Below are positions 61,601-64,000 of a stretch of DNA of 64,000 nucleotides, in pieces. How positions within the stretch are numbered: the first letter of the stretch is position 1; each line of letters starts with the position of its first letter. Source of the stretch: Escherichia coli O157:H7 (lineage in GTDB: Bacteria; Pseudomonadota; Gammaproteobacteria; Enterobacterales; Enterobacteriaceae); NCBI RefSeq assembly GCF_013167455.1, contig NZ_CP038328.1, one strand, 5' to 3'. Position numbers: made by a program.

Positions 61601-64000
61601 GGATAAGCGCCGTCGTGACCTGGACAATATCCTGAAAGCACCACTGGATGTGCTGACGCATGCCGGACTTCTCATAGACGACGAGCAGTTTGATGAAATC
61701 AATATTGTGCGCGGTCAGCTCGTTCCTGGTGAGCGGCTGGGGATAAAAATCACAGAACTGGAGTGCGCATGAATAACCACTATTTACAGTTTGTGCGTGA
61801 GCAGCTCATTATCGCCACCGCTGATTTGAGTGGGGCAACAAAAGGTCAGCTTGAAGCCTGGCAGGAGAATGCCATGTTCGATACAGGGCGTTACAGGCGA
61901 AAAAAAATCCGGTACCGCGATGAAGTGACTGGAAAAATGATAACGCGGGATAATCCACCAATCCCGGGAAAGCAATCGCTGGCGAAGGTGACGTCAATTC
62001 CTCTGGTCAGTCCGGTTGAGTTTTCGACATCATCGTGGCGGCGGGCTGTTCTGTCTCTTGAAGAACATCATAAAGCCTGGTTGTTGTGGTGTTACAGCGG
62101 GAGTATTTGTTGGGAATATCAGATCGCGATAACACAGTGGGCGTGGAATGAATTTAATACTCAATCCGGTACCAGAAAAATTGCAGGGAAAACGCAGGAA
62201 CGCCTGAAAAAATTAATCTGGCTGGCGGCGCAGGCAGTAAAAGCAGAACTTTTTGGTGGGGAAGGTTATGAATACAAGGAGCTGGCATTACTGGTGGGAG
62301 TGACAACTAAAAACTGGTCCAAAACATTTACTCGTCACTGGGTTGCAATGAAACACATTTTTCACCGACTGGATAGTGAGGCTTTATTGTTTGTAATGAG
62401 AACGCGTTCAAAACAAAAGGCGGCATTTTCAAAGCAAAGTGTTGCAAAAGTAGATTGAAAGGCATATATTTCATGCAAATCTGATATTTTGCCGATTTTG
62501 TACGTGATGGCAAAAGCAAACAAAACCCGCCCACAAGCGGGTTTTTTTGTGCCACTTATCTCGGATAGACATGGTGAATGCGCTGGTGGAGGAAGTAAGG
62601 GTAATTTTTAACCAGGTGATTCTTGAATGCTTGCAACATTGATTTCGTAACGTTATTATCCTGCGCCCGGCCCTTTAGCTCAGTGGTGAGAGCGAGCGAC
62701 TCATAATCGCCAGGCCGCTGGTTCAAATCCAGCAAGGGCCACCATCACATACCGCCATTAGCTCATCGGGATAGAACGCCAGCCTTCGAAGCTGGTTTCG
62801 CGGGGTTCGAGTCTCCGATGGCGGTCCATTATCGGTATTCTGCGTTTTTAGCTCAGCAGGACAGAGCAATTGCCTTCTAAGCAATCGGTCACTGGTTCGA
62901 CTCCAGTACAACGCGCCACACTTATTTTCCCGGCTCGCTTTTGCGGGCCTTTTTTGTATCTGCGCCACGCCCGGCACATACCAACCACAGAGCCTTTCGG
63001 GGGGGGGGAGCTTACGGAGTGGTCAGTGTGACTTTCTCTGTGGGCAGATCGCTCCCGGGCGTTGGCTCACCCACCCAAAGGAACGTCACGATGTTTGGTA
63101 TTTTTGGTAAAAAAAGCCCGCAGAGCGGCAACGGAAATTAAAAAGTTTGAAAAACGCGATCTGGCACAGGTGGTGATTAACGCCGCATACCTGGTGGCCT
63201 GTGCAGATGGTGAATGTGAGGCATCCGAGAAAGCGAAGATCGAACAGGTACTGCGTAATCAGCCTGCGCTGTCCGCGTTTACGTCAGAAATTAATGCGAT
63301 TAGCGCAACCATTATCGGTCAGCTGGATACGAACTTTAAAACTGGTCGTCGTGCGGCGTTACGTGAGATCGAGGATGTGAAACACGATACGCGTGAAGCG
63401 GAAGATGTGCTGGATGTGGCGGTGGCCATTGCGGAGGCAGACGGCGAAATTGAGCCGGAAGAGCGCAAGGTGCTGGAAGAGATTGCCGGTGTTCTGGGTC
63501 TTCGTCTGGAGAATCACCTGTGACGGTAAAACTGCGCCTGACTGTGGCTGCACTCCTGCTGTTTCTGGTGGTGATGGTGGATTTCACCAGCAGAATCATG
63601 TCGGTGCTGGCGGATGGGGTGCTGGTCTGCGGCATTGTGGTATTGCTGTGGCCGGTGATAAAAAGAAACAGCCTGCATAATGCTTGATTTTTTTGTTTGC
63701 TGTTTATTAAAAACACTTCTGCATGGTGAATCCCCCTGTGCGGAGGGGCGATCAGCAAGAAGGTATATGGGATAATCGCGGATTCAGGTGCTGGTACTGA
63801 ATTCACCGGGAGGCACCCGGCACCATGCTTTGCCACAAAAGTGTTATTTCTGTTTTTCTCAAACTATCATCGTTATCCCTTTATTTCCGGCTGCGCATGG
63901 CGCGGCCTTTTTTTTACGACCAGCCACTGGCAGATGGTCATCCTGTGATTTGATTCCGGTTCCGGCTTTTTAACTCTGTTCCTGTACACGGGAGAAATTC

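Follow-up and report, generated by a model that had tools for sequence, protein, structure and literature searches.

The subject of this analysis is a run of ten consecutive G residues (the G10 tract) in the leader, or 5′ untranslated region (UTR), of a small cargo module in a lambdoid prophage of Escherichia coli O157:H7, upstream of a gene encoding a TerB-family protein. The tract lies in a 64,000-nucleotide stretch of contig NZ_CP038328.1 (assembly GCF_013167455.1), referred to here as the window, whose numbering is used throughout. Comparison with related genomes indicates that this is a genuine hypermutable tract, truly variable in length, and that it is a lineage-specific derivative of a conserved, non-repetitive element. 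The leader that contains this element is a candidate for a new cis-regulatory RNA family, unannotated to date, and is a more interesting lead than the tract itself. As for why the tract exists, we think it rather probable that it is a mutational by-product in a drifting cargo module, in preference to a selected switch for translational phase variation.

The G10 Tract and Its Leader

The elements on which the argument depends are as follows.

62932..62955, + strand: intrinsic terminator after the tRNAs, GGCTCGC-TTTT-GCGGGCC followed by T6 (terminator scan)
62956..63090, + strand: conserved leader (5′ UTR) of the cargo module, about 135 nt, predicted to be structured
62993..62997, + strand: anti-Shine-Dalgarno (anti-SD) element CCTTT, directly 5′ of the G tract and complementary to AAAGG at 63077-81
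62999..63008, + strand: G10 tract (direct reading)
63063..63083, + strand: 3′ partner strand, TGGCTCACCC-ACCC running into the Shine-Dalgarno (SD) sequence AAAGGAA (pairing conservation)
63077-83, + strand: SD sequence AAAGGAA
63091..63523, + strand: TerB-family (TciA-like) gene (phrog_632, PGAP annotation, frame analysis)
63109-63115, + strand: A7 run in the 5′ part of the TerB-like gene

Read directly, the tract is GGGGGGGGGG, flanked by GAGCCTTTC on the 5′ side and AGCTTACGG on the 3′ side. It is found where a preliminary description of this DNA had placed it, between the post-tRNA terminator (62932-62955) and the ribosome binding site of the TerB-like gene, and the A7 run that had been reported about 100 bp downstream is also present, 101 nt from the G tract. 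The description further called the length unusual, and a homopolymer count bears this out: the tract is the sole G or C run longer than six in the window, where an independent and identically distributed (i.i.d.) model gives an expectation of 0.06 G runs of ten or more per 64 kb. In 1.11 Mb of related prophage contigs, all five G or C runs of at least ten sit at the tract site, and the longest run elsewhere is nine. The G10 tract is real, far beyond chance and statistically exceptional. Coding potential across the tract was considered and rejected, as a change in tract length disrupts the open reading frame (ORF) at 62941-63141.

Tract Length Among Related Prophages

The preliminary description had proposed a comparison of tract length among related prophages, which was run on two collections and gave clear polymorphism, from G7 to G14. 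A scan of IMG/VR with the exact flanks of the tract returned 120 contigs, in which the site reads GGGGGTG (98 contigs), G7 (15), G6 (2), GGGGTG (2), or G10, G11 and G12 (one each). The interrupted form is thereby nearly invariant (98 copies of GGGGGTG vs. 2 of GGGGTG); runs of G8 or longer occur in five IMG/VR contigs with four different lengths (G8, G10, G10, G11, and G12). A 67-nt query around the tract was also compared with 5,426 complete E. coli genomes and matched 767 records, of which 127 carry exactly G10. Length classes were taken from the subject spans in an evenly spaced sample of 60 of these 767 rows: GGGGGTG in 20 rows, G7 in 4, G8 in 1, G9 in 2, G10 in 10, G11 in 7, G12 in 5, G13 in 6, and G14 in 3, with two further rows having a 63-nt span that is one base shorter and whose tract letters were not read.

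Every length from G7 to G14 was also read directly in E. coli genome sequences: G7 in strain 2014C-3061, G8 in F2_407_2_2, G9 in O157:H7 strain 7409, G10 in the window and in strain 144, G11 in wild-type strain 86-24 (NZ_CP017251.1, L348), G12 in a laboratory derivative of 86-24 (mutant NZ_CP017249.1, L257), G13 in 2014C-3057, and G14 in EDL933, for which two independent assemblies agree. Carriers of G7-G14 are mainly O157:H7 and other E. coli that make Shiga toxin (STEC). Among O157:H7 genomes, G9, G10, G11, G12, and G14 are all found at one locus with the same Q protein (WP_001059381). The earlier suggestion that the tract is hypermutable by slippage is thus upheld as far as length variation between genomes is concerned; that slipped-strand mispairing is the cause we infer from general knowledge of homopolymer instability.

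Several further copies of the site were encountered. A second copy of the module in one O157:H7 genome carries G6 (L262, NZ_CP038423.1 2112948-2114832), and copies with G7, G8, and G13 sit in another prophage backbone that has a different Q and two tRNAs only (L258, L259, L261). In PPompW prophages (L264, LC567822.1 PPompW_132418, 2790-4260; matches H44-H54), the IS110-family insertion sequence (IS) ISEc20 abuts a G7 tract, with CCTTTCGGGGGGG on one side of the junction and TGCCCC on the other, and these prophages lack the remainder of the leader, TerB, and the lysis genes. The region of the tract may serve as a target for an IS or mark the end of a deletion.

Origin of the G Run

In canonical leaders the tract site reads (A/G)GGGGUGAGC, and the base equivalent to 63007 is T. 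This T is kept in all non-E. coli leaders, from Pantoea, Franconibacter, and metagenome types, in which the site takes the forms AGGGGTGAGC and AGAGGTGAGC and, in one metagenome variant, AGGGATGAGC. It is also kept by the majority of E. coli copies, as in the 98 of 120 IMG/VR relatives that read GGGGGTG. By parsimony, the ancestral state at 63007 is the T of GGGGGTG, and the tract arose in three steps. An A-to-G change in E. coli-type leaders gave G5TG (G5UG in the RNA); a T-to-G change at 63007 in the lineage of the window then removed a U-A pair that is otherwise conserved and joined the Gs to make G7; and replication slippage expanded G7, only after this fusion. An independent T-to-G change at the same helix position is seen in another leader type, where AGGGGTGAGC has become AGGGGGGAGC (L285, 493-629, and L306, 3405-3540, both metagenome contigs), yielding G6 with no further expansion. 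These cases suggest recurrent mutation of the base equivalent to 63007.

Conservation and Predicted Folding of the Leader

Prophages of Escherichia, Pantoea, and Franconibacter, as well as metagenomes, share the leader in conserved form, and the stretch from the T run of the terminator to the start codon is better conserved than the gene behind it. The same leader stands upstream of two divergent TerB subfamilies and occasionally ahead of unrelated genes, namely those for an HNH-like protein, a secreted binding-protein-like protein, and a lipoprotein-like ORF. Its carriers include L125-L128, L138, L145, L265, L270, and many others. A divergent leader sub-family (L138, L188, L194, L272, L282, L330, L334) has other P0/P1 and P3 sequences and keeps the CCACAGAG/CTCTGTGG and GGGTGAG/CTCACC elements; in L138 this divergent leader precedes the HNH-like gene (MNQYSS...). 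In the metagenome scan, 45 of 69 distinct matches were pattern noise and were discarded. No recognizable leader was found with distant TerB homologues (41-49% identity) from Serratia, Pectobacterium, Pseudomonas, Bilophila, and Oceanisphaera. A search of the 4227 families of Rfam 15 with the window leader (62956-63090) and with canonical E-type and K-type leaders gave no match at E-values up to 10.

Two alignments of the leader were made: A1 has 47 sequences, and A2, in which metagenome types are represented, has 45. From these we propose that the leader has two mutually exclusive, nested folds, with the following predicted helices.

Fold A: P1, 62968-74/63055-61; P2, 62985-92/63036-43; P3 hairpin, 63021-25/63029-33
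Fold B: P0, 62962-66/62973-77; long duplex, 62993-63013/63063-63081; P4, 63016-24/63047-55

In the long duplex of fold B, CCUUU (62993-97) would pair with AAAGG (63077-81), so that the anti-SD would engage the SD; after a 2-bp step, ten positions of the form GGGUGAGCY(A/U) would pair with NGGCUCACCC. The G tract forms the central part of the 5′ strand of this duplex. The canonical helix partner of the tract strand is GCUCACCC, just upstream of the SD, and in the window the ten-nt partner strand is TGGCTCACCC at 63063-72.

Pairing in these helices is well maintained. The positions of fold A together with the tract helix are paired in 96.4% (A1) and 94.0% (A2) of cases vs. 34-49% when partners are slid, figures to be read with the fact that the search patterns themselves dictated P2 and some of the tract strand. 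The long duplex alone is 95.3% paired, P0 and P4 together 92.3% (A1) and 88.5% (A2), and the anti-SD:SD pairs are conserved at 94-99% in A1 and A2. Compensatory changes are found in the tract helix (A-U 23 vs. U-A 17 at one pair, A-U 35 vs. G-C 4 at another) and in P1 (U-A 22 vs. C-G 17), and four pairs of P4 have changed on both sides. G-U wobbles are frequent, so the pairing is specific to the sense strand, which argues for an RNA and not a DNA site. Canonical leaders also fold better than shuffled sequences (z = -2.6 to -3.1), and in the K-type and F-type leaders fold B, in which the SD is paired, is the minimum free energy (MFE) structure. A local pairing of the tract with CCUUU returned by RNAalifold was rejected, as it requires an impossible 1-nt loop. 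The leader combines features of structured cis-regulatory elements, namely conservation across taxa with compensatory changes and an anti-SD able to pair with the SD, and it is on these alignments and folding models that its candidacy as a cis-regulatory RNA family is based.

Tract Length and Predicted Occlusion of the Shine-Dalgarno Sequence

Of 44 distinct rows, 39 have the canonical pair between U63007 and A63069; the other five are the G variants. For the isolated long duplex, the calculated energy is -27.5 kcal/mol in the ancestral form, -25.5 in G7, -24.9 in G10, and -22.3 in G14. The probability of anti-SD:SD pairing was then calculated from partition-function models of the whole leader with 12 choices of 5′ and 3′ ends, giving the following values.

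G5UG, G7, and G8: at most 0.02
G10: 0.01-0.26
G11: 0.03-0.49
G12: 0.41-0.89
G13-G14: 0.84-0.93

The models thus predict a steep increase in SD occlusion on passing from G11 to G12, which falls within the lengths found in nature, and within this model a threshold so placed is the strongest argument for a functional switch. The preliminary description had suggested that leader structure could switch with tract length; with the tract in a conserved helix beside the anti-SD, and with occlusion predicted to depend on length, this part of it is plausible.

The TerB-Like Gene and the A7 Run

The protein encoded downstream matches phrog_632 ("tellurite resistance") with E = 2.5e-68 over residues 1-143 of 143, and the NCBI Prokaryotic Genome Annotation Pipeline (PGAP) names it "tellurite resistance TerB family protein"; no NCBIfam equivalog match was obtained for it. 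In intact relatives, the gene begins with MFGIF(G/K)KK from an ATG equivalent to 63091, and the site of the A7 run reads A6 or AAAAAGAAAA. In the window, A7 puts ATG 63091 out of the TerB frame, leaving a 16-codon ORF (MFGIFGKKSPQSGNGN, then a stop), and PGAP starts the TerB frame at TTG 63095. The preliminary description had counted the G and A runs as two independent length-variable switches. This does not hold for the A run: an 85-nt allele containing A7 recurs unchanged in 548 of 623 genome records, spanning O157, O55, O26, O103, O111, and other serogroups, and amounts to a fixed frameshift relative to the canonical ATG. A6 on this background was found only in the laboratory derivative of 86-24, where it restores the canonical ATG frame. 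Judged from these records, the A7 allele is widespread and fixed, not hypervariable. TerB is interrupted by internal stops in other copies of the module, whether these sit in the same genome or in other prophage backbones. The A7 allele itself could represent a pseudogene, a gene initiated at TTG, or a gene that depends on frameshifting or transcriptional slippage.

Explanations for the Length-Variable Tract

In favor of a by-product of mutation in a drifting module, A7 throws the canonical start out of frame and the sister copies are pseudogenes. Any effect of tract length would act via folding of the leader RNA and access to the SD, with longer runs favoring the SD-occluding fold and a threshold near G11/G12; the tract may incidentally modulate translation and is probably not a selected ON/OFF contingency switch. 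The opposing view is one of adaptive phase or rheostat variation in translation, in which the SD would be open in the fold taken at G10 or below and occluded in that taken at G12 or above, and slippage between the two would make populations heterogeneous in their expression of TerB/TciA-TciB. It draws on the coexistence of G9-G14 among closely related O157:H7 genomes, on a predicted switch point that falls midway along the lengths found in nature and holds whichever sequence window is modeled, on the place of the tract directly beside the anti-SD in a strand with covariation-supported pairing, and on the 86-24 parent and laboratory derivative being one G apart. However, the tract is derived, breaking a U-A pair that is otherwise conserved, and a run is absent from most leaders whatever the taxon, the canonical start of the downstream gene is out of frame and its sister copies are pseudogenes, folding predictions are inconsistent across natural leaders, and mismatch-repair-proficient E. 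coli is not known to make wide use of homopolymer contingency loci; we consider adaptive variation unlikely. In its most far-reaching form, which strikes us as quite unlikely, the leader would be a bistable cis-regulatory RNA not described before, controlling translation of cargo genes in the late region of Enterobacterales prophages, and in STEC prophages slippage of the poly-G run in the switching strand across G11/G12 would stochastically open and close the SD.

Several observations nonetheless weigh against a by-product in a drifting module, or against the picture of the leader that goes with it. The length distribution, with a mode at G10-G11 and many G12-G13, straddles the predicted threshold as a selected switch would. 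The A7 allele is widespread and identical across serotypes, and the gene may still function through the TTG start or frameshifting. The covariation rests on few independent evolutionary events, and shuffled sequences fold as well as the leader of the window itself (z = -0.57 and -0.52), a comparison in which the G-rich mutant leader is uninformative alone and the canonical leaders are significant. Other-type natural leaders have predicted occlusions from 0.00 to 0.93 in the same model, which moreover ignores pseudoknots, so that the model is weak in either direction.

Two further explanations were weighed. If the length differences were homopolymer errors of long-read or pyrosequencing assemblies, the true tract could be fixed; many of the complete genomes are long-read assemblies, and the isogenic 86-24 pair (G11/A7 in the parent vs. 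G12/A6 in the laboratory derivative) is off by exactly one base at both homopolymers, as is typical of miscalls. That pair reflects either real slippage in laboratory passage or long-read homopolymer error, and such differences of ±1 might be errors. Yet the range of 7-14 far exceeds ±1, the two EDL933 assemblies both give G14, and the draft isolate assemblies of IMG/VR vary too. Generic homopolymer error cannot explain such a range, since the same data show almost no variation in GGGGGTG (98 of 100 copies) or in the nearby A7 (548 of 623 records), and an artefact is very improbable. The other explanation, also raised in the preliminary description, is that a promoter specific to the module has the tract as its spacer, between -35 and -10, so that changes in length would alter initiation of transcription. 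Morons often have their own promoters, and the tract, just after a terminator, precedes the start codon by about 85 nt. A consensus scan, however, found no sigma-70-like promoter on the + strand in 62660-63310, and none was apparent in the leader by eye; the hexamers beside the tract (CCTTTC / AGCTTA, GTGACT) match the promoter consensus poorly; the conserved flanks show RNA-type covariation and G-U wobbles, unlike promoter conservation; and a range of 7-14 nt would destroy any fixed spacer. With the tract after the terminator and inside the transcribed leader, a role in promoter spacing is not supported and is extremely improbable. The module is presumably transcribed by read-through from tRNA or pR′ transcripts.

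Neighborhood of the Module

The remaining features around the module, from the antiterminator gene onward, are listed below.

61769..62458, + strand: late antiterminator Q gene of a lambdoid prophage (ORF; annotated "bacteriophage antitermination protein Q" at the identical locus of NZ_CP028603)
62442..62550, + strand: unit of pR′-like promoter, short leader, and tR′-like terminator
62442-62470, + strand: pR′-like promoter, TTGCAA-17-TATATT (promoter scan and direct reading)
~62525-62548, + strand: tR′-like terminator, hairpin and T7 (terminator scan and direct reading)
62631-62659, + strand: promoter-like site of the tRNAs (promoter scan)
62669-62744, + strand: tRNA Ile/Met-CAT (ARAGORN, Rfam tRNA match, PGAP)
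62752-62828, + strand: tRNA Arg-TCG (ARAGORN, Rfam tRNA match, PGAP)
62842-62918, + strand: tRNA Arg-TCT (ARAGORN, Rfam tRNA match, PGAP)
63520..63687, + strand: gene for a DUF3927/TciB-like small membrane protein, overlapping the TerB stop codon (phrog_1470, E = 5.6e-30; PGAP "DUF3927 family protein")
63692..63864, + strand: STnc100-family small RNA (sRNA)-like element closing the module (Rfam RF02076)

The pR′/tR′ assignment of 62442-62550 follows from its position after Q and is to that extent putative. The tRNA at 62669-62744 is called tRNA-Met (anticodon CAT) by ARAGORN and tRNA-Ile by PGAP on an identical gene; it is presumably the lysidine-modified, ileZ-type tRNA of Stx-like phages. 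In the terminator that follows the tRNAs, the stem letters differ among aligned relatives and complementarity is kept. The STnc100 match at 63692-63864 scores 101.8 bits (gathering score 47, E = 1.3e-22), and annotation of identical genomes places a nanS-p-like esterase gene next after it.

Significance

E. coli is not usually credited with homopolymer-based contingency loci. A range of G7-G14 within the O157:H7 clone would make the tract an unusually fast-evolving site, which could serve as a fine-scale strain marker and is of a kind known to be hazardous for assembly and single-nucleotide polymorphism (SNP) pipelines. If tract length sets the accessibility of the SD, this would be phase variation via mRNA folding, not via reading frame or promoter spacing. 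The conserved, unannotated leader, found ahead of TerB/TciA-type and other cargo in the slot of the Shiga toxin genes, would make the regulation of prophage cargo testable.

Comparison With Known Systems

A search of the literature on this tract or on regulation of the TerB moron found nothing relevant, and the comparisons that follow are with better-described systems. The tciA-tciB genes of phage P1, which carry the TerB-family label "tellurite/colicin resistance, inhibition of cell division," share with the module the profile matches to phrog_632 and to phrog_1470 (TciB-like), and the homologue of the TerB-like gene in phage JLK-2012 is annotated tciA. Unlike P1, the setting here is a lambdoid late operon in which no tciC was seen, and the shared names are those of annotation only.

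In gene order and tRNAs, the locus resembles the moron slot of Shiga toxin (Stx) phages, which comprises Q, pR′/tR′, the ileZ-argN-argO tRNAs, stxAB, sRNAs, and nanS-p. The gene order is that of a lambdoid late-region moron, and co-transcription with the late operon may be expected. DNA similarity to Stx2 phages covers the tRNAs and the terminator, up to about 62966, and ends where the leader begins; in contrast to those phages, TerB/TciA and DUF3927/TciB-like genes with their own conserved leader replace stxAB. Cargo followed by an sRNA element and a nanS-p esterase has been described in O157 prophages (PMC4104026). The STnc100 match directly after the cargo genes agrees with the published sRNA genes between moron coding sequences (CDSs) and the nanS-p esterase. 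An identity as an AgvB-like anti-sRNA was considered for the CA-rich CACAUACCAACCACA and rejected: AgvB, AsxR, and the Pas sRNAs, PasA and PasD among them, map outside the leader, downstream of the cargo CDS (PMC4104026; bioRxiv 10.64898/2026.05.13.724894).

The tract itself invites comparison with the simple sequence repeat (SSR) contingency loci of Neisseria, Haemophilus, Campylobacter, and Helicobacter, with their poly-G/C tracts. As in those systems, there is a long G homopolymer, beyond the length of about 8 nt from which slippage is frequent, whose length differs between close isolates, slipped-strand mispairing is the presumed cause, and the tract stands beside the expression signals of an accessory gene. 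Classical tracts, in contrast, are found within ORFs or in the spacer from -35 to -10; the tract here is non-coding, with no predicted promoter around it, and is part of a 5′ UTR helix. The host is also a mismatch-repair-proficient E. coli, and the tract is a recent derivative of a non-repetitive element instead of a conserved feature of the locus.

The leader finds its closest analogies among leaders that sequester the SD, such as riboswitch expression platforms, RNA thermometers, and the kinetically trapped leaders of hok and the MS2 maturation gene. Like them, it is a conserved 5′ UTR with two exclusive sets of helices, in one of which the anti-SD (CCUUU) would pair with the SD (AAAGG), and with covariation in several helices. 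Those leaders have a ligand, temperature, or kinetic dependence, whereas the present one is known from sequence and folding predictions, matches no Rfam family, and is linked to the cargo of prophage late regions. It differs from them, finally, in having a mutable homopolymer embedded in what would be its switching strand.

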